A stretch of 64,000 nt of DNA from contig CALRFF010000001.1 in the NCBI GenBank assembly GCA_943356495.1, positions 24,957 to 88,956 of the forward strand, given 5' to 3'. This DNA is from Candidatus Nomurabacteria bacterium (GTDB lineage: Bacteria; Patescibacteriota; Minisyncoccia; Phycocordibacterales; SBAW01). Positions 15,251-59,915 of this stretch are shown one piece after another. The notes under the pieces are model-generated. The model was not told the origin of the DNA. It was given only the letters and a program-made list of their open reading frames with translations, and did no database searches. The number at the start of each line of letters is the position of its first letter. Position 1 is the stretch's first letter. The translations under genes were made by a program, and so were the position numbers.

Positions 15251-15321
15251 CGGGCCGTAGTATATCGGCAGTACACATGCATGGGGTGCATGTAGGCCGG
15301 GTTCGATTCCCGGCGGCCCGA
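15251..15321 (+). tRNA. tRNA-Pro (anticodon GGG)
   Basis: Acceptor CGGGCCG/CGGCCCG, anticodon stem CATGC/GCATG with loop ATGGGGT (U33, GGG, G37), T-arm CCGGG-TTCGATT-CCCGG, short variable loop. Confidence 0.75.
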
Positions 15322-15401
15322 CACGTTTAAAAGTTTTGATACAACGATAAAAAACGTTGTCAAATAAGGGTATTTTGTAATAGATGGGGTAGGCTTTTTT
15401 C

Positions 15402-15447
15402 TTGTCAAGCTCGGCGCTTGACCCCCTTGACAAAAATGTAGTATCAT
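15402..15447 (+). promoter_or_regulatory. nested palindrome (TTGTCAAG...CTTGACAA enclosing GTCAAGC-n5-GCTTGAC) overlapping a -35 TTGACC / -10 TAGTAT-TATCAT promoter-like element
   Basis: Perfect inverted repeats seen directly, with sigma70-like hexamers at about 16-18 bp spacing. Lies upstream of the secreted transglycosylase gene. Confidence 0.4.
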
Positions 15448-15455
15448 ATCCTTAT

Positions 15456-15485
15456 CCCTGAGCGGTCGAGCTCGGGGCTTTTTTG
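15456..15485 (+). terminator. intrinsic terminator-like hairpin and T-tract in the leader of the 15526 gene
   Basis: CCCTGAGC-ggtcga-GCTCGGGG followed by CTTTTTTG. Confidence 0.5.
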
Positions 15486-15525
15486 TTCCCGTGCGCCGTT
15501 AATCAACTTATATGAACACCATACA

Positions 15526-51297: not shown

Positions 51298-52119
51298 TTA
51301 TATAGCGGTACCGGGTACGCACAAGCCCGCGACCTCCTCGAGCACCAGTTGGGCTTTTTTGCCTGAAATACCCGCCGTAGCCATGGCGCGGGTATCGGTC
51401 GTAAGCGAGTTACACAACACTATCCGCTGGCTCAGTAAAGCCATTTTTTCTCGGTTGCTCAAAGTGGTAAGAGCGGTTACGGGGTATAACCCGGCGGCGT
51501 CGATCCGGTCGTGTAGGTTGCGCCCGTGCGGGTACTCCCACCCTAAAAGCTCGAGTCCGCGACAGCTGCCGTACTGTAGCGCCGGCGTCGTAAATTTGGT
51601 GTTGGTAACCACCATGCCGCGGCCGTTGCCTATGTCTTCGATACGGGCCATCACGTAGAGCACCGTTTTAAGGTCGGTTTTAAAACCGGCAGTGTTATGA
51701 AATTTTGCCTCAACGTATACCGTCTCTTCGCCTTTGTCGGTTTTTTTGGACATCACTACGTCGACCTCATGCTCGACGCAGTGCCCTTGGACAATCTGGT
51801 CTACTTTTGTCTTCCATCCTTCAAACTCAAAGAGTTTCGCAAGATAGGTCTCGAAGGGAAACCCCGACGGGCCGAAGTCGAGCACCGCGCGCTTAAGACT
51901 GTAGCGCGCCGCCACCCCTTTTTTATGTTCACGCAACAAAGCAAAGGCACGGCGATATATTTCGCTCGTAGTGGTACCGCTTTTTAACGTCGGCGCAATG
52001 TCGCTCGCAATCTGCTCGGCTGCCGCAGAGTCGGCACCCGCGCGCGCGAGGCTAGAAACTAGTTTACGCTGGTCAAACGGCTCTAGGGTGCCGTCGGATT
52101 TCACTATGAGGATAGACAT
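51298..52119 (-). CDS. ATP-cone domain fused to restriction-endonuclease-like (Mrr-cat type PD-(D/E)xK) domain
   Basis: N-terminus MSILIVKSDGTLEPFDQRKLVSSLARAG resembles an ATP-cone (NrdR-like). A downstream hExD...(V)EAK region is PD-(D/E)xK-like. Confidence 0.6.
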   Translation of the reverse strand: MSILIVKSDGTLEPFDQRKLVSSLARAGADSAAAEQIASDIAPTLKSGTTTSEIYRRAFALLREHKKGVAARYSLKRAVLDFGPSGFPFETYLAKLFEFEGWKTKVDQIVQGHCVEHEVDVVMSKKTDKGEETVYVEAKFHNTAGFKTDLKTVLYVMARIEDIGNGRGMVVTNTKFTTPALQYGSCRGLELLGWEYPHGRNLHDRIDAAGLYPVTALTTLSNREKMALLSQRIVLCNSLTTDTRAMATAGISGKKAQLVLEEVAGLCVPGTAI

Positions 52120-53186: not shown

Positions 53187-54203
53187 CTAATTGCCTAGAT
53201 ATTTTCTGGCGTTTGCCTGCTGGCAGGAGTACGTAACGCAGTAGTGGAAGACCCCTTGCTTGTCGGAGAGATAAAACACGTAGTTCGACTTAATAGGCGT
53301 TACCGCGGCGGTAATAGCGCCCAGCCCCGGGTTGGCGATCGGCCCCGGCGGCAACCCTTTGTTGGTGTAGGTGTTGTACGGATGATCGGTACGCAGGTCT
53401 TCGCGCGTCACTTCAAACGTGTTGCGCCCTAAGTAGTACGGAAAGACGGCGTCTACCTGCAGCGGCATGCCGTTAGCAATGCGGCGCCATAATATGCCGG
53501 CAATGGTGCGGCGGCTCTCCATGTCGGCCGCCTCGCGCTCAAGTAACGACGCCATAATAATGACGTCACTGAGCGGCTTGCCGAACTTTGCTATAGAGGT
53601 AGAGGCTGCGGTAATGCGGTTAGTAAAGTTAGTTTGCATGGAATGCAGCAGGACCAGCGGGTCGGAGCCCGGCAGCACAAAGTAGGTGTCGGGGAACAAA
53701 TACCCCTCGTTAGGCTTGCCTTCCTGTATAAATAATTCCGCGTCAAAGTCCGGTACGCGCTTGGCGAGCAGTGCCCCCATTTGTTCGGCGGTTAACCCCT
53801 CGTAAAACACCATACGTACAGGAGTAAGCTCAAAGTCGCCGAAGGCCAGCCGTTCGGCTATTCTCCAGCCGCCCTGTTTGCCGGAAAAAAAATATTCTCC
53901 TGCGTATATCTTTTTGTCATTGCCCATAAAACGCACTAACGCCTCAAACACCGCTACCGAGCGGATAATATGCTTGCTTTTAAGCGTCTCGCCCACCTGC
54001 CGCAAGGTTTGGCCGTCTTTAACCCGCAAGTACGAGCCGGAGGGAAAGTCGAGCGGCGGGCTGAGCGTCACAAAATACAGCAAATAGACAAGCATCCCGA
54101 ACAAAAATGCCATAGGGAGTATCCGGTCGTACGCGCGACACTCCCAGCACGTTTCGTCGCAGACCAAAGCGCCGCGGAATATATGTTTGCGCTCTTTTGT
54201 CAT
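53187..54203 (-). CDS. mltG: endolytic murein transglycosylase (YceG family)
   Basis: N-terminal TM helix and YceG motifs including the GLPPGPIANPG region. Confidence 0.85.
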   Translation of the reverse strand: MTKERKHIFRGALVCDETCWECRAYDRILPMAFLFGMLVYLLYFVTLSPPLDFPSGSYLRVKDGQTLRQVGETLKSKHIIRSVAVFEALVRFMGNDKKIYAGEYFFSGKQGGWRIAERLAFGDFELTPVRMVFYEGLTAEQMGALLAKRVPDFDAELFIQEGKPNEGYLFPDTYFVLPGSDPLVLLHSMQTNFTNRITAASTSIAKFGKPLSDVIIMASLLEREAADMESRRTIAGILWRRIANGMPLQVDAVFPYYLGRNTFEVTREDLRTDHPYNTYTNKGLPPGPIANPGLGAITAAVTPIKSNYVFYLSDKQGVFHYCVTYSCQQANARKYLGN

Positions 54204-55591
54204 TAGTGTCCGGGCAGCGTAATCTGCGCGGTCGGCAAGTTGGGCGGCGCTTCGCCCACACGGCTTGCCACGCGCACCAACCCCGGTGTTTTAACCGCCG
54301 CACTCGGGAAGTGCCATATACTGGCCAGCTCCTCGGTGGTCATAGCGACCGGCACTTGGTCATACGGCACATAAAAATAGGCGCGATGCTTGTACCAAAA
54401 AAACATGCGTTTACGCACCATCTTGTGGCGGATATCGTTCCAATCCTGCCAAGGGTAGTCAAAAATGGACATACCCCGCGTTACGTTAATGGTGTTGTAG
54501 TCCGGCGCCCTAAACGGGTCCCACAAACGCACTAAGTTATTGACTTTAGACAGGTCAAATTTTCCTTTCTGTACTATATACATGCCGCGGAAACCGCATT
54601 CGAAAATAAGTTTATTAAAGTTGCGCTCGATAGCCTCGATACGATCTTTTTCGGGGGTAGAAAGTAGCTGCACGCCGCGGCCTGCCGCGGCTTGCTTTTG
54701 CACCGGATCCTCTACGCGGTCTTGCGCGCGTTTTACCGCGTCGTCAAAAATTTTCTTAATAGCAGCCTTCCCGCCTTCTTTATAACTGTCGGCCGTTTTA
54801 TAAAAGCCGTACCATTCGTCCTTCTTGCGCGCTTTCATTACAATTTGAATCCATACATGCTCGTCGGGCCTGATAGACGCCAAAAATTCGAGAATGTTGG
54901 TAATAGGGTCTACCTGCTTTTCGGGTTTGTCGGGGTCTTTGTCGAGCCCCCAGTCGATATACGTTTTAATAGGCACGGCGCCGGGCTGGCTTTTTTCGTA
55001 CTCGGTACCCCACAGGTCGTGTGTCTCGGGGCTATAGCCGGCCTTGGTGACGTAGTCTTCTCGTACTTCAGTAATCTGCGCTTCGGGGAATTGGCCGTAA
55101 ATACGCGCCTCCATAAACTGCTTCCATGCGCGGCGTAGATGGATATAGTAGCCGATGCGCCCGCCGTTGCTTACCAGTTCGAGCGTAGTAACAGCGCGGT
55201 ACTGCCCTTTCCAAATGCGCTGAATAAAGGTGGTTTCAGAACCGTTATTCCAGAGGCCGGTCAATATAACCTCCATTGCCAAAGGCGACTTTTCAACCAC
55301 GGCGGGCAGCTCGATATGCAGCAGCACAAAATCCTGTTTAAACCAAAAAGCATAGCGCAGATAATGTATCCATCGCTTCCAAAACATAATAAACAGCACT
55401 ACCGGCAGCCAGAGCGGAGAGGTAGCGACTAAAGCAGCGAAGGTGCCTGACACCGCGTCCGGGTCGACGCCGAGCGCTACTATCGTTAGAAGCAGCATTG
55501 CGGGGGGCACAACCGCAATCGGCTCTACATGCCAGCCGTCCAACCAACTGCTTATACCTTCGGCCTCATGATGCAGGAACATAGGATGCAT
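54203..55591 (-). CDS. hypothetical protein (462 aa, N-terminal TM segments plus a large Trp/Lys/Asp-rich domain)
   Basis: Long clean ORF ending exactly at the mltG start. No motifs recognised. Confidence 0.5.
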   Translation of the reverse strand: MHPMFLHHEAEGISSWLDGWHVEPIAVVPPAMLLLTIVALGVDPDAVSGTFAALVATSPLWLPVVLFIMFWKRWIHYLRYAFWFKQDFVLLHIELPAVVEKSPLAMEVILTGLWNNGSETTFIQRIWKGQYRAVTTLELVSNGGRIGYYIHLRRAWKQFMEARIYGQFPEAQITEVREDYVTKAGYSPETHDLWGTEYEKSQPGAVPIKTYIDWGLDKDPDKPEKQVDPITNILEFLASIRPDEHVWIQIVMKARKKDEWYGFYKTADSYKEGGKAAIKKIFDDAVKRAQDRVEDPVQKQAAAGRGVQLLSTPEKDRIEAIERNFNKLIFECGFRGMYIVQKGKFDLSKVNNLVRLWDPFRAPDYNTINVTRGMSIFDYPWQDWNDIRHKMVRKRMFFWYKHRAYFYVPYDQVPVAMTTEELASIWHFPSAAVKTPGLVRVASRVGEAPPNLPTAQITLPGH

Positions 55592-55608: not shown

Positions 55609-55971
55609 TTGCGGTACACTAGAGCGATGGAGGCTTTTGCGATTGCGCTTGTCACCGACCCTCTGCGGTATATCGCGTATATCTTTGCGCTCTTTGGCGC
55701 CATAGGAACGCTATTATTTATGGCGGGCTTCGGCGGCGGGATTAAATTTATATTTACCTATGCCGAAGACGCGCACCATATGGCGCATGCGCGTGCCCGT
55801 ATTGTGTGGGGTGTGCTTATCTGCATGGTGACGCTCGGGTTGTGGGAAATTGTGCGCGTGGTTATAGGACAAGCACCGCTTGGGTATCTGTGGTTGTCAC
55901 TATTCCTCTTAACTCCGCTGTGGATACCTGCACTTATGAAGCTTGCAAAAGGAGGCGGAGGCGGTCACTAG
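55609..55971 (+). CDS. hypothetical small membrane protein (120 aa, 3-4 TM, GGGGGH tail)
   Basis: Hydrophobic ORF divergent from the 462-aa gene, with a terminator immediately downstream. Confidence 0.45.
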   Translation: MRYTRAMEAFAIALVTDPLRYIAYIFALFGAIGTLLFMAGFGGGIKFIFTYAEDAHHMAHARARIVWGVLICMVTLGLWEIVRVVIGQAPLGYLWLSLFLLTPLWIPALMKLAKGGGGGH

Positions 55972-55976
55972 TAAAA

Positions 55977-56000
55977 AACTCCCCGAAGGGAGTTTTTTAC
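55977..56000. terminator. bidirectional terminator
   Basis: AAAAAACTCCC-cgaa-GGGAGTTTTTT, near-identical to the hairpin at 7428-7454. Confidence 0.6.
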
Positions 56001-57046
56001 TTTACCAAGGTAAACTTGTTGTCTTTGCCGCGTTTAAAGTATTTTTGATTCTGCAAGTTGACCACAATAGTGCCCGGCTTTACATGGCGCTCTTTAAGCA
56101 CCTTTTCGATAATTTGGTCTTTGGTCATAGGGCCGCCGTTGCGCAACACCTCGCGCACCACGTCGCGTACGACGCCTTGGGTATAGCCCCACTCGCATAG
56201 CGCGTACATACCGCGGCCCACCAACACAAAACGCGGGTCTTTAATAAGTTCGTTGTGGGTGGTGGCCACGTGCGCCTTGCGGTCGAACATCTTTTCAATC
56301 ATGCTTGCCACCTCGCGGAAGTGCAGCGGAGAACCGTGCTTTTTAACCGCCAAGTACGCGTAGTCGCGTACCCCTTTGGTCTTTACGTTTTGCGAGCTGG
56401 CCTGGCCCCACTCGCCGAGCGGGTTTTTACCGATGTTTTTAGAAATAGAGAGCCAGCGCTTAAGCACCTCGCTGTTGCGGTGCTTGTCGTTAATATTTTG
56501 CAGCTCCTTAAGAAAGCGGTCTATCATCTCGCCCTCCGGTATTAGGTCCTCGTCAGAAAGGCCTTCATACAAGCGCTTGAGCGAGTCTTCGACTTTGCCG
56601 GCAAGCTCGTGGTCGACGTACCAGCAGCGGTTAACCTCGTCGTCTTCTTTGCGGTATTTAAACGGGTCGCCGAGCACCAAAAGGAAGTAGATATGGTTCT
56701 GCATCGACTTGTCCTTGGTCATAAAATCGAGTAGGTCGTCCTCGCAGACAATGCCGCCGAGGCCGTCGATAATGCGCTCGAGCTCGCCGAACGCCGGCGT
56801 AACCGAGTCGAAAGCCGGCGACTTTTTAAGCGCGGCAAGGGCATGGTTTTCAATCTGGCGGACACGCTCGCGGGTAATACCGTAGCGCTTGCCGATAGCC
56901 TCCAACGTCACCTTTTCGGTATTAGTGCCAAGGCCAAAACGGGCCTCAAGGACGGCGCGCGAACGCTCCGGGAGCGCCGAGAGAAGGCGCTTAACTATCA
57001 CTTTAGGTTTGAACCCGGTTTTATCGGCAACAGCCGCCTTGGTCAT
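55997..57046 (-). CDS. sigma-70 region-4 domain fused to two HARE-HTH domains
   Basis: N-terminus LSALPERSRAVLEARFGLGTNTEKVTLEAIGKRYGITRERVRQIENHALAALKK matches sigma70 region 4.1/4.2 nearly residue-for-residue. No regions 2 or 3. The C-terminal half holds two HARE-HTH-like modules (VRDYAYLAVKKHGSPLHFREV..., VRDVVREVLRNGGPMTKDQIIEKV...). Confidence 0.6.
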   Translation of the reverse strand: MTKAAVADKTGFKPKVIVKRLLSALPERSRAVLEARFGLGTNTEKVTLEAIGKRYGITRERVRQIENHALAALKKSPAFDSVTPAFGELERIIDGLGGIVCEDDLLDFMTKDKSMQNHIYFLLVLGDPFKYRKEDDEVNRCWYVDHELAGKVEDSLKRLYEGLSDEDLIPEGEMIDRFLKELQNINDKHRNSEVLKRWLSISKNIGKNPLGEWGQASSQNVKTKGVRDYAYLAVKKHGSPLHFREVASMIEKMFDRKAHVATTHNELIKDPRFVLVGRGMYALCEWGYTQGVVRDVVREVLRNGGPMTKDQIIEKVLKERHVKPGTIVVNLQNQKYFKRGKDNKFTLVK

Positions 57047-57092
57047 AGGTATACGTTGTATCACAGGGTTGCCCAGTGAGTCAAATGTGTGG

Positions 57093-59915
57093 TCAAGCAC
57101 TCTTGACAGACAAACTTAAAATCTTGCCCGGTACATACACCACCTTAGTTATGTCTGCGCCGGAAAGCCACTTAGCCACCACTGCATTGGCCTGCGCGGC
57201 AGCAACCGCCTCCTCTTGCGAAGCGGTGGGGGCAAGCTCAACCGTGCCGCGTAATTTGCCGTTAACCTGTACGCCCAAGGACAGCACCGCCGCCGTAAGT
57301 TTGGTCGCGTCGTAGGTGGGCCACTGCTCCCAATCGGTTGTTACAAAGCCCGCGCGTTCGGCAAGCTCATGGGCAAGGTGCGGCGCAAAGGGGTTAAGTA
57401 TCTGCAAAAATTGCATCCACTGCGCCTTGCCTATCGTCTTTTCTTTTTCTACGGCATTAAGCAGTATCATCATCTGGCTTACTGCGGTATTAAACTTAAA
57501 CGCCTCGATATCATCGCCCACCTTTTTAACCGTCTGCGCAACAATAGTATCAAGTGCCGGCACTGCGGACTCTTGTACCGCGTCTTGGAGCTTCCACACA
57601 CGCTCGACAAAGCGCGACACGCCGTTTATCGAAGCGGGGTTCCATGCGGTCGTATTTTCAAACGGACCCATAAACATTTCGTATAAACGGAAGGTGTCCG
57701 CCCCCACCTGTGCCACCACGGTTTGGGGGTTAATAACGTTGCCGTAACGCTTACTCATTTTGCGGCCGTCCTCGGCCAAGATAAACCCCAAAAACTCCAA
57801 CCGGGCAAAAGGCTCGGTGGTGCTTACCGCCCCGATATCGTAGAGAAATTTGTGCCAAAAGCGGGCATAGATTAAGTGCCGCACCGCGTGGTCGCCGCCC
57901 ACATATACATCAACCGGCGCCCAATACTTTTCTTTCTTCGGATCCACCAACGCAGTGTCGTTATGCGGGTCCATAAAACGCAGATAATACCAGCTACTCC
58001 CCGCCCACTGCGGCATGGTGTTTGTCTCGCGCTTGGCGGGGCCGCCGCAGGTAGGGCAGGTCGTGTTAACCCACTCCTGTATATTCGCCAAAGGCGACTC
58101 GCCCGTGCCCGAGGGCTCATAAGAGGTAACTTCCGGCAACAGCACGGGCAAATCCTTTTCGGGCACGGCAACGGCGCCGTCTGTAGGACAATGGATAATC
58201 GGGATAGGCTCGCCCCAGTAGCGCTGGCGGCTAAACACCCAGTCTTTTAGTTTGTAGGTAGTGGTCATCTTGCCGCCGACAAACTCGGTTATTTTTTTCT
58301 TGGCTTCCTCGCTCTCCAAGCGGTCAAATTGCCCTGAATTAGCAAGCGTCCCGTTGCCGGTATAGATGCTCTGCGTGCCCAAGAGCCAACGCAGACCATG
58401 CTGATGCGTATCGGGAGTCAAGAATTTTTTAAGCTCTTCAGCCGTGAGCCAAAGCATCTCATGTATAGATTCTTCTTCGGCCGCGACCGGCTTACGCGCA
58501 TCGCTCCGGAGCTCGAAATACACAACATGCGCATGGGCATTACGGTTAGTTTTTTTTGGCACGTGATAAAACTTGCCGTGGACAATGCCGAAGTCCTTTA
58601 TAAACTCCGCATCGGTATAGCCAACCTCTTCCTCAAGCTCTGCGCGTGCCGCGATTTCGGGAGTTTGCCCTTTTTCTATGCCGCCGGTTATAAAAGTCCC
58701 CCACGCCACTTTTTTCCACTTAAGCGCAATATATTTGTCTTCGGCCCAATGCTTTACTATCGCAATTATCGCCTCGCGATGGTCAAAAGGCTCCCCTTTT
58801 TTTATCTTTCCGGGTTCAGTGGTTTGTTCGTAGGTAGGCTCGATGACCTGTCTGATAGGTAATTTAAATTTATTTGCAAACTCGTAGTCGCGCTCGTCGT
58901 GCGCGGGCACAGCCATAATTGCGCCGGTGCCGTAGCCCCACAACACATAGTCGGCGACAAACACCGGAATTTCTTCTTTCGTCGCGGGATTGATGGCTTT
59001 GACGCCTTTAAGCTCGACGCCGGTCTTTTCTTTAGCCGCCCCACGCTCTATCTCGGTTTTGCTTTGCGCTTTCGCTACATATTTTTTAACCTCGGCATTG
59101 CCAAATTCTTCAACCAGCGGATGTTCGGGGGCCAACACGATATATGTGGCTCCAAACAGCGTATCCGGTCGCGTCGTAAACACTTCTATTTGTGATTTGT
59201 TATTTGTTATTTGAAATTTCAGAAGGGCACCTTCCGAGCGGCCTATCCAGTTGCGCTGAGCTTCCTTTATATACTCGGGCCATTGCAGGCCCCCCAAGTC
59301 TTCCAACATACGGTCGGCATAGGCTGTAATTTTAAGCACCCACTGCGGCAGGCGCTTTTTTTCTACCTTGGTACCGCAACGCTCGCACACGTCGCCGTCC
59401 AAGTCCTCGTTAGCAAGCCCCGTCATGCACGAGGGACACCAATTGATAGGCTCACTGCTCTGGTAGGCCAAACCCTTTTTAAACATCTGCAAAAAAATCC
59501 ATTGCGTCCACTTGTAGTACGCCGGGTCGGTGGTATTAATCTCACGCGACCAGTCGTAGTCAAAGCCGATGTCGGCAAGCTGCTGCTTAAAGTTGGCGAT
59601 ATTTTGCTCGACCGCTACGCGGGGGTGGATTTTGTTTTTGATGGCATAATTTTCGGCGGGTAGGCCAAAGGCGTCCCACCCCATGGGGTGCAGCACGTTG
59701 TGTCCGCGCATGCGCATATGGCGGCTGTAGATATCGGTCGCTATGTAGCCCTTAGGGTGCCCTACATGGAGCCCCTCGCCCGAAGGGTACGGAAACATAT
59801 CGAGCACGTAGGTTTTAGGTTTGGCAGAGTCGTCGGTAGCGGCAAAAGCTTTGGACTCTTTCCACTTTTCCTGCCATTTTTTTTCTATACTCCGATGATC
59901 GTACTGGTCGGCCAT
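57093..59915 (-). CDS. leuS: leucine--tRNA ligase with an inserted NUDIX-fold module
   Basis: HIGH (PYPSGEGLHVGH), Zn-1 domain (CPSC...CERC), CP1 editing domain (TTRPDT, AVPAHDERDYEFA), KMSKR and anticodon-binding domain. Residues ~375-512 are an insertion with a Nudix-box-like motif. Confidence 0.9.
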   Translation of the reverse strand: MADQYDHRSIEKKWQEKWKESKAFAATDDSAKPKTYVLDMFPYPSGEGLHVGHPKGYIATDIYSRHMRMRGHNVLHPMGWDAFGLPAENYAIKNKIHPRVAVEQNIANFKQQLADIGFDYDWSREINTTDPAYYKWTQWIFLQMFKKGLAYQSSEPINWCPSCMTGLANEDLDGDVCERCGTKVEKKRLPQWVLKITAYADRMLEDLGGLQWPEYIKEAQRNWIGRSEGALLKFQITNNKSQIEVFTTRPDTLFGATYIVLAPEHPLVEEFGNAEVKKYVAKAQSKTEIERGAAKEKTGVELKGVKAINPATKEEIPVFVADYVLWGYGTGAIMAVPAHDERDYEFANKFKLPIRQVIEPTYEQTTEPGKIKKGEPFDHREAIIAIVKHWAEDKYIALKWKKVAWGTFITGGIEKGQTPEIAARAELEEEVGYTDAEFIKDFGIVHGKFYHVPKKTNRNAHAHVVYFELRSDARKPVAAEEESIHEMLWLTAEELKKFLTPDTHQHGLRWLLGTQSIYTGNGTLANSGQFDRLESEEAKKKITEFVGGKMTTTYKLKDWVFSRQRYWGEPIPIIHCPTDGAVAVPEKDLPVLLPEVTSYEPSGTGESPLANIQEWVNTTCPTCGGPAKRETNTMPQWAGSSWYYLRFMDPHNDTALVDPKKEKYWAPVDVYVGGDHAVRHLIYARFWHKFLYDIGAVSTTEPFARLEFLGFILAEDGRKMSKRYGNVINPQTVVAQVGADTFRLYEMFMGPFENTTAWNPASINGVSRFVERVWKLQDAVQESAVPALDTIVAQTVKKVGDDIEAFKFNTAVSQMMILLNAVEKEKTIGKAQWMQFLQILNPFAPHLAHELAERAGFVTTDWEQWPTYDATKLTAAVLSLGVQVNGKLRGTVELAPTASQEEAVAAAQANAVVAKWLSGADITKVVYVPGKILSLSVKSA

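Follow-up and report, generated by a model that had tools for sequence, protein, structure and literature searches.

A primary-sigma-like region 4 joined to four predicted winged-helix modules in a Patescibacteria protein family encoded beside DUF8128

In a 64,000-nucleotide stretch of a Candidatus Nomurabacteria contig (CALRFF010000001.1, positions 24,957 to 88,956; hereafter the window) we analysed a gene whose product, here called the region 4 protein, carries the -35-reading domain of a primary sigma factor without the body of a sigma factor. The protein is not a sigma factor, and it is unlikely to be a subunit of RNA polymerase. We read it, tentatively and at somewhat less than even probability, as a DNA-binding regulator that would use an exapted sigma region 4 to recognize TTGAC-type sites and would be tied to an orphan type-IV ATPase module. 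Patescibacteria, for which candidate phyla radiation (CPR) is another name, account for much of the diversity of bacteria; their genomes are tiny and contain few recognizable regulators, and nearly all remain uncultured. What we observed in this protein is its architecture, the conservation of its residues, its phyletic range, its gene neighbourhood and the conservation of its promoter.

The gene itself is as follows.

55997..57046, minus strand: gene for the region 4 protein, an open reading frame (ORF) with an ATG start, 349 aa, stop codon at 55997..55999

Pfam Sigma70_r4 (PF04545) matched residues 21-75 of the product with E = 1.4e-16 and 60.1 bits against a cutoff of 24.1, and matches in NCBIfam and to sequences in the Protein Data Bank (PDB) covered only region 4 of RpoD, RpoS and SigA. 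Identity in this region is 44% over 66 aa to Escherichia coli sigma-70 and 47-53% to Thermus aquaticus (Taq) sigmaA, with a Foldseek rmsd of 1.5 Å and a TM score of ~0.8 to the latter. The recognition helix, TRERVRQIE, is essentially identical to the TRER(V/I)RQIE of primary sigma factors. An earlier note on this DNA, made from the sequence alone, had described the whole domain as matching RpoD almost residue-for-residue, which is apt for the recognition helix but overstates the likeness of the region as a whole.

Searches for the remainder of a sigma factor returned region 4 only. When the window and ~100 related loci were searched by tblastn with E. coli RpoD regions 2-4, regions 2 and 3 were absent; neither Pfam nor NCBIfam matched region 2 (PF04542) in the protein, and the sigma-70 superfamily model TIGR02937 scored 33.6 bits, below its cutoff of 42.9. 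Because leuS directly adjoins the gene, there is no room upstream for a hidden sigma body. A full-length sigma factor concealed by a frameshift was likewise rejected, as no region 2 or 3 was found upstream and the lengths of family members are tight at ~340-360 aa. The proposal of the earlier note that this is an orphan region 4 in a protein that cannot be a sigma factor is therefore borne out: profile searches recover the domain, and what lies upstream is leuS rather than a sigma body.

The exact start of the protein depends on the choice of codon. leuS (57093..59915, minus strand) ends at 57093, which leaves a spacer of 46 bp before the ATG rather than the few base pairs reported earlier. 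If translation began instead at the GTG at 57100, the product would have 367 aa and the gene would overlap the leuS stop (GTGCTTGA) by 8 nt. This is the version in public gene calls; an exact look-up found the 367-aa product on record and no public record of the 349-aa ATG product. Residues 1 to ~15-30 are not conserved across the family.

A family alignment (A1) was built from 66 diverse homologues with 32-54% identity, and it also served as input for AlphaFold2. R36, T47, L48, G52, R59, E60, R61, R63 and Q64 are invariant in all 66 members, and R28 and T58 are kept in at least 90% of them. In a HMMER alignment to E. coli sigma-70 the residues correspond to R562 (R36), T572 (T47), L573 (L48), G577 (G52), R584 (R59), E585 (E60), R586 (R61), R588 (R63), Q589 (Q64), R554 (R28) and T583 (T58). 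These positions are established contacts of sigma-70 with the TTGACA hexamer, known from the structure of Taq sigmaA region 4 on -35 DNA (1KU7) and from classical mutants altered in -35 specificity. As every -35-reading residue of sigma-70 is kept, the sigma-4 head most likely reads TTGAC(A)-type sites on its own, and reading of -35-like DNA is the most plausible activity of this domain.

The AlphaFold2 model of the whole protein (pLDDT 96.2, pTM 0.86) is rigid and consists of sigma region 4 followed by four winged-helix modules. The domains, all encoded on the minus strand, are:

56813..57007, minus strand: domain 1 (D1), sigma-70 region 4.1/4.2 helix-turn-helix (HTH), aa 14-78; from PF04545, PDB sigma-4 matches and alignment A1
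56612..56812, minus strand: domain 2 (D2), winged-helix-like, aa 79-145; H-E-H-H-E-E order in the AlphaFold2 model, acidic and variable
56387..56611, minus strand: domain 3 (D3), winged-helix-like, aa 146-220; from the AlphaFold2 model, with a conserved C-terminal NPxGEWG motif, near-neutral and variable
56183..56386, minus strand: domain 4 (D4), HARE-HTH 1, aa 221-288; from PF05066, basic, the most conserved domain
56000..56182, minus strand: domain 5 (D5), HARE-HTH 2, aa 289-349; from PF05066 in family members, hhalign and the AlphaFold2 model, basic

D4, which displays the motifs PLHF, TVHNELIKD and RFVLVGRGxYAL, matched HARE-HTH (PF05066) over aa 230-286 with E = 2.4e-5 and 25.1 bits, just under the cutoff of 25.9, and most homologues carry precomputed PF05066 assignments. 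In D5 the family was undetected from the sequence of the protein alone, and was matched in 31 of 50 family members (best E 5.3e-7). When sub-alignments of the modules were compared by hhalign, D4 and D5 were related with 88% probability (E 2.8e-6), D3 and D5 with 85%, and D2 and D3 with 79%. As judged by these sequence profiles, the last two modules are homologous HARE-HTH domains. The tandem HARE-HTH assignment of the earlier note is thus correct, given the matches to D5 segments and the D4-D5 profile alignment; its count of two modules in the last ~270 aa is not, as there are four winged-helix modules. No Pfam family was found in D2-D3 of ten members, and the D5 profile matched nothing significant among PDB sequences. 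Besides sigma-4, a Foldseek search of the PDB with the model returned only generic tandem-winged-helix proteins (UFL1/DDRGK1, Dcc1, RPC62 and AlkX/YcaQ), and the viral library gave no match to the full architecture.

Conservation and charge divide the five domains in the same manner. Sigma-4, D4 and D5 are basic, with a pI of ~10 (~10-11 for sigma-4) and a net charge of ~+5 each (+5 to +8 for the D5 region), and their mean top-residue frequencies are 0.54, 0.69 and 0.56. D2 and D3 are acidic or neutral (pI 5.5 and 6.5) and variable, with a frequency of ~0.35; the whole protein has a pI of ~9.4-9.5. We infer from this pattern three DNA-reading heads (sigma-4, D4 and D5) mounted on a two-module scaffold (D2 and D3).

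Two database proteins depart from the common architecture. P0233 (552 aa, from a Logan contig) is a family member with a Cys-rich N-terminal extension and a C-terminal DnaA domain IV (TIGR00362, E 7e-21, aa 455-546). DnaA domain IV is another sequence-specific DNA reader, and the fusion fits any role in which the family reads DNA sites; its only source is one short contig, so that an assembly artefact is conceivable. P0174 (659 aa) appears in the database as a fusion of SecF to the region 4 protein, and is probably a read-through gene call, since secF lies directly upstream of the gene in deep lineages (L084 and L086).

The family is large and taxonomically confined. A word-indexed search returned at least 8000 homologues, and an exhaustive search of 50%-identity representatives gave 591 clusters at E <= 1e-30; among the clusters listed, nearly all were full-length proteins of 340-360 aa. 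All named sources were Patescibacteria (Adler-, Kaiser-, Nomura-, Campbell-, Niyogi- and Buchananbacteria, Paceibacterota and Minisyncoccia). The window comes from an Adlerbacteria-like genome (93% identity to locus L001). Members are annotated as 'hypothetical protein', by PGAP as 'sigma factor-like helix-turn-helix DNA-binding protein' or, automatically by JGI, as 'RNA polymerase delta subunit'. The family is almost certainly 3.6k.fam21714 of Meheust et al. 2019 (PMC6744442, Supplementary Data 1), as inferred from length, domain and taxon rather than from sequences. That entry comprises 1320 proteins with a median length of 346 aa and Sigma70_r4 as the sole domain, is found in 1250 CPR genomes versus 2 non-CPR genomes, and bears the labels 'unknown' and 'enriched' (PMC6744442). 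The region 4 protein agrees with it in having 349 aa, Sigma70_r4 and, for its homologues, named sources that are all Patescibacteria. fam21714 is tabulated among 106 CPR-enriched families, with neither architecture nor neighbourhood given, and is undiscussed in the main text of that paper (PMC6744442), so the family is already catalogued but is uncharacterized and without a proposed function. The gene is single copy in most genomes that carry the family. As CPR genomes encode full-length RpoD (in 2026 genomes; Meheust 2019, Supplementary Data 1, PMC6744442), the region 4 protein is no replacement for a sigma factor.

The region 4 protein is also the slowest-evolving gene product of its own neighbourhood. 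Its median identity to homologues in Adlerbacteria-like loci (up to 74 loci per gene) is 83.7%, compared with 66.6% for ychF, 62.9% for mnmA, 52.2% for leuS, 50.3% for yceG and 49.1% for the neighbouring gene that encodes a DUF8128 protein.

The strongest clue to function is genomic, namely the adjacency of the gene to a DUF8128/VirD4-like module across deep divergence. On the minus strand of the window the order is ychF, DUF5671, leuS, the region 4 gene, a convergent small ORF, a gene for a 462-aa membrane protein, yceG, mnmA and an ATP-cone/Mrr gene, and this order is kept in ~70 close loci. The two neighbours of interest are:

54203..55591, minus strand: DUF8128 membrane protein, 462 aa, with N-terminal hydrophobic helices and a predicted fold like that of the VirB4 N-terminal domain
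55609..55971, plus strand: small membrane ORF, 114-120 aa, convergent with the region 4 gene and called as a gene in the public record

The 462-aa protein is homologous to the products of genes 3' of distant family members (BLASTP 2e-38 and 4e-50), for which an assignment to PF26449/DUF8128 is precomputed. Among the close loci, 67 have a DUF8128 match downstream with a coverage of at least 70%. It follows the region 4 gene directly in 22 of 25 distinct distant loci, in which the region 4 protein is 28-61% identical to that of the window and enough downstream DNA is available. Its companions vary: upstream of the region 4 gene these loci have secD-secF (7 loci), leuS (7) or a tRNA (1), and after DUF8128 they have a VirD4-like ATPase (12) or yceG (4). 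In this ATPase the domains DUF87, TrwB_AAD_bind and TraG-D_C ('TraM recognition site') are present, and its NCBIfam matches are VirD4-like CD1115, TraD and CedD. Three lineages encode DUF8128 together with the ATPase in one ORF, 878-1043 aa long (L103:7044-9815, L104:7235-9871 and L105:2796-5927).

When the AlphaFold2 model of the window's DUF8128 protein (pLDDT 80, pTM 0.77) was submitted to Foldseek, it matched TrwK/VirB4 of R388 over ~440 columns, in 12 matches with a probability of 0.99-1.0. We interpret this match between a predicted structure and TrwK/VirB4 as the VirB4 N-terminal domain, in which case DUF8128 would represent a membrane/N-terminal module that has become detached from a VirB4/VirD4-type motor. 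DUF8128 and the ATPase would together make up a split type-IV ATPase that is widespread in Patescibacteria, with its parts in adjacent genes elsewhere and fused in the three lineages named above. VirD4-like proteins of this phylum have been surveyed by Quinonero-Coronel et al. 2025, who counted 5,713 of them in 2,918 Patescibacteria genomes, or ~2 per genome (PMC12102498). Only 148 lie near virB4, there is generally no relaxase, and exaptation 'cannot be ruled out' (PMC12102498). DUF8128 is unmentioned in that survey, and we found no mention of it in the literature searched.

The small ORF between the two genes is kept at the same position in Adlerbacteria-like genomes, and is weakly similar to pilin-like proteins of conjugal transfer of the Mbov_0395 type (NF045849; E 2.7e-5, short of the cutoff).

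The signals that flank the region 4 gene are the following.

57056..57096, minus strand: promoter of the region 4 gene, read from the sequence, within the leuS 3' end and the spacer
55971..56000, both strands: bidirectional intrinsic terminator hairpin, GUAAAAAACUCCC-UUCG-GGGAGUUUUUUAC, overlapping the stop codon of the region 4 gene

The promoter consists of a -35 element TTGACT (57084..57079), a 17-nt spacer with a TG extension and a -10 element ATACAA (57061..57056), and the messenger RNA (mRNA) is probably leaderless or nearly so. A second element, TTGACC, lies 12 nt upstream (57096..57091) and overlaps the leuS stop. Homologous promoters were present in all 74 close loci, as TTGAC(A/C), ~17 nt, TGTGATATA.., then ACCACAC and the ATG, and a TTGAC -35 with an extended -10 was found 5' of the gene in ~25 of 26 distant loci. 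The additional TTGAC stands 9-12 bp upstream of the -35 in 18 of the 74 loci, at exactly 10 bp in 16. TTGAC-N4-7-TTGAC tandems occur 22 times in 802 kb of loci, 17 of them just upstream of the region 4 gene. As a crude baseline, a correctly spaced TTGAC accompanied 9 of 14 extended -10 candidates for this gene versus 1 of 43 others. Autoregulation by a protein that reads -35 elements would be expected to leave a pattern of this kind, and the promoter is a candidate autoregulatory operator. At the other end of the gene, the terminator that the earlier note had assigned to it is real (folding energy dG -23 kcal/mol, z -4.6, from RNA folding), though the convergent small ORF shares the hairpin, which is bidirectional. 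No promoter for DUF8128 was convincingly identified in the window.

Elsewhere in the window, an intergenic segment at 15323..15525, after tRNA-Pro(ggg) (15251..15322), contains three TTGACA and one TTGACC within ~75 bp. This cluster is followed by a -10-like TATCAT and, ~15 nt later, by a hairpin with a T-run. The element may encode a tiny transcript or serve as an attenuator.

Taken together, these observations suggest the following mechanism. The N-terminal domain would be an exapted copy of a primary-sigma region 4 and is a predicted reader of TTGAC(A)-type sites. The two basic and conserved C-terminal HARE-HTH domains would probably contact flanking DNA, while the two variable modules, D2 and D3, would hold the heads in a fixed geometry. 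Such a protein would most likely act as a transcription regulator that occupies -35-type sites, including its own TTGAC -35, and negative autoregulation by occlusion of the -35 element would be the result. It may also control the ATPase locus, or be co-regulated with it. What we predict from the comparative evidence is that the protein binds DNA, that it does so with specificity for TTGAC, that it regulates its own gene and that it is linked to the ATPase. A further and rather unlikely reading makes the protein the subunit that selects DNA for a type-IV ATPase machine specific to CPR and free of relaxase. In it the exapted sigma-4 head would read promoter-like TTGAC sites and, together with the HARE-HTH heads, would deliver this DNA to the DUF8128/VirD4-like motor in the membrane or couple transcription sites to that motor.

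A number of our own results weigh against a TTGAC-reading regulator tied to the ATPase module. In the window, the terminator and the convergent ORF separate the region 4 gene from DUF8128, so that the two form no operon there, and the VirD4-like ATPase is absent from all 64 kb. In other lineages the gap between the two genes is either 9-40 bp or, in several, is occupied by a terminator and a new promoter; given this varied arrangement, what is conserved is the neighbourhood and not always an operon. The phyletic distributions of the partners also differ, as the VirD4-like family occurs in 2083 CPR genomes versus 1250 with the region 4 family. The window shows no enrichment of TTGACA, with 15 sites versus ~20 expected. 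The loci with tandem TTGAC elements are phylogenetically related and do not represent 17 independent events, and the promoter may mean only that an abundant protein has a very strong promoter. Finally, evolution as slow as that of the region 4 protein would typify core machinery more than it would a local regulator.

That slow evolution is one of the points in favour of an unlikely alternative, raised by the earlier note and given no specific support by our results, in which the protein docks on RNA polymerase, with sigma-4 on the beta-flap tip and/or HARE-HTH on beta-prime, and acts as a mimic or competitor of sigma-4 or as a delta-like global modulator. Both region 4 and the delta N-terminal domain, which D4 resembles (TIGR04567, E 1e-4), come from bona fide polymerase subunits, and the latter is bound between the shelf and the jaw of beta-prime (PMC7749165). 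The protein is extremely conserved relative to its housekeeping neighbours, its consensus promoter suggests high expression, and JGI has automatically annotated some members as a delta subunit. However, the protein fell short of the delta model cutoff (22.1 versus 42 bits), the acidic C-terminal region of delta is lacking and the corresponding C-terminus is basic, and the HARE-HTH signature is common to many proteins outside RNA polymerase. As its conserved neighbour the gene has a type-IV ATPase module and not rpo genes, and invariant DNA-contact residues argue for the reading of DNA rather than for flap binding alone. The consensus promoter and strong conservation, together with three basic heads, an overall pI of ~9.4-9.5 and a single copy in most carrying genomes, would also suit a nucleoid-associated or architectural protein of high abundance, with three HTH heads for broad DNA binding and no dedicated target. 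We consider this very unlikely, because the invariant base-specific residues of sigma-4 argue for sequence specificity, and because the rigid multi-domain fold (pTM 0.86) and the conserved neighbourhood would be left unexplained.

The neighbourhood is accommodated by another reading that we regard as improbable, that of a non-transcriptional DNA adaptor which marks chromosomal or incoming sites and hands the DNA to the DUF8128/VirD4-like motor. Possible analogues would be TraM, TrwA and PcfF with their coupling proteins, or the winged helix of FtsK-gamma or Streptomyces TraB. In its favour are the conserved adjacency to DUF8128 and the ATPase, the TrwB_AAD_bind and TraG-D_C ('TraM recognition site') domains of the latter, the pilin-like ORF that adjoins the gene, the one homologue fused to DnaA domain IV, and the occurrence of ~2 VirD4-like genes per Patescibacteria genome, mostly far from virB4 and without relaxases (PMC12102498). 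Set against these are the lack of homology to known accessory factors and the frequent separation of the ATPase gene from that of the region 4 protein, as in the window. Canonical FtsK with its gamma domain is kept in CPR (2026 genomes), so that no segregation substitute is needed; the candidate in which the VirD4-like module replaces FtsK and the region 4 protein reads KOPS was rejected for this reason. An isolated region 4 with intact -35-reading residues could lastly form one of the two subunits of a split sigma factor of the Bacillus subtilis SigO-RsoA type, acting in trans to a region-2 protein. This is highly improbable, as no adjacent region-2 coding sequence was found in the window or in ~100 loci, complete RpoD is present in CPR genomes, and the 270-aa winged-helix body is without counterpart in such systems. 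A DNA-binding regulator with an exapted, TTGAC-reading region 4 remains the account that we favour.

Two further genes of the neighbourhood were recorded alongside these results. leuS encodes a 940-aa leucyl-tRNA synthetase (LeuRS) with an inserted NUDIX domain (PF00293, precomputed on the identical public gene), in which a Nudix-box-like stretch, GGIEKGQTPEIAARAELEEEVGY, can be recognized by eye. The gene at 51298..52119 (minus strand) encodes a 273-aa protein in which an ATP-cone is fused to an Mrr-type restriction-endonuclease catalytic domain, and it is kept in the same neighbourhood even where the region 4 protein of the relative is only 34% identical.

A group-1-like sigma-4 that retains invariant -35-reading residues outside a sigma factor, and is joined to four winged helices, was not found in the literature searched, and neither were the linkage to a split VirB4/VirD4-type ATPase and the conserved TTGAC promoter. 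For the combination of sigma-4 with HARE-HTH this is judged by titles and abstracts. The protein is likewise unmentioned in the Patescibacteria survey of type IV secretion systems (T4SS; PMC12102498) and in the Southlakia transposon-sequencing (Tn-seq) paper. Its architecture provides a testable prediction of its DNA target, TTGAC-type sites including its own promoter, and the gene neighbourhood links the protein to VirD4-like ATPases that the recent survey could not place in a T4SS. If the protein does compete with sigma factors at -35 elements, it would represent a new and simple mode of global transcription control. Should it instead be a DNA-selecting subunit, it would provide a new way of targeting a conjugation-type motor and the first reuse of a primary-sigma region 4 outside RNA polymerase.

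Among known systems, one close likeness is to region 4 of the primary sigma factors (RpoD/SigA; PF04545; 1KU3, 1KU7 and 1RIO), which has the same fold and the same -35-contact residues. In contrast to these factors, the region 4 protein lacks regions 1.2, 2 and 3 and is therefore unable to bind core polymerase via sigma-2 or to melt a -10 element; its region 4 is N-terminal to a 270-aa winged-helix array instead of C-terminal, and its family is confined to Patescibacteria. With the RNA polymerase delta subunit (RpoE) of Firmicutes it has in common the wing signature xxL..D.RF...G.W/YxL, found in D4 and in the delta N-terminal domain. Unlike delta, it has two tandem HARE-HTH domains, a basic C-terminus (pI ~10) and no polyanionic tail, whereas the C-terminal region of delta has a net charge of -47 and is the functional part of that subunit (PMC7749165).

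SigO-RsoA, AsiA, Rsd and WhiB illustrate that sigma region 4 can act, or be targeted, as a separable module. The best sigma-4 structures in the Foldseek search, ranking after the generic tandem-winged-helix proteins, were sigma-4/flap chimeras with WhiB proteins. In contrast to SigO-RsoA, no gene for a region-2-only partner was found beside the region 4 gene in the flanks of ~100 loci. A defence or phage origin was considered and rejected: MzaA, the sigma of the MZA anti-phage system, matched in region 4 only (63.8 bits versus a cutoff of 800), PADLOC and PHROGs matches were similarly limited to region 4, and no other defence genes were found.

A different kind of resemblance exists to TraM of F, TrwA of R388, PcfF of pCF10 and TraN of pIP501, cytoplasmic, sequence-specific DNA binders that are encoded beside VirD4-type coupling ATPases and function with them. 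TraN is a two-HTH protein that represses tra genes. For none of the four did Pfam, NCBIfam or the PDB give a homologue match to the region 4 protein, and there is no fold relationship. Unlike the conjugative systems, the CPR module lies on the chromosome, lacks a relaxase and is in most cases distant from virB4 (PMC12102498). What the region 4 gene has in common with these DNA binders is its placement beside a VirD4/TraD-type module, with DUF8128 as its neighbour in 22 of 25 distant loci and the ATPase present as well in 12 of them, fused to DUF8128 in 3 of the 12.

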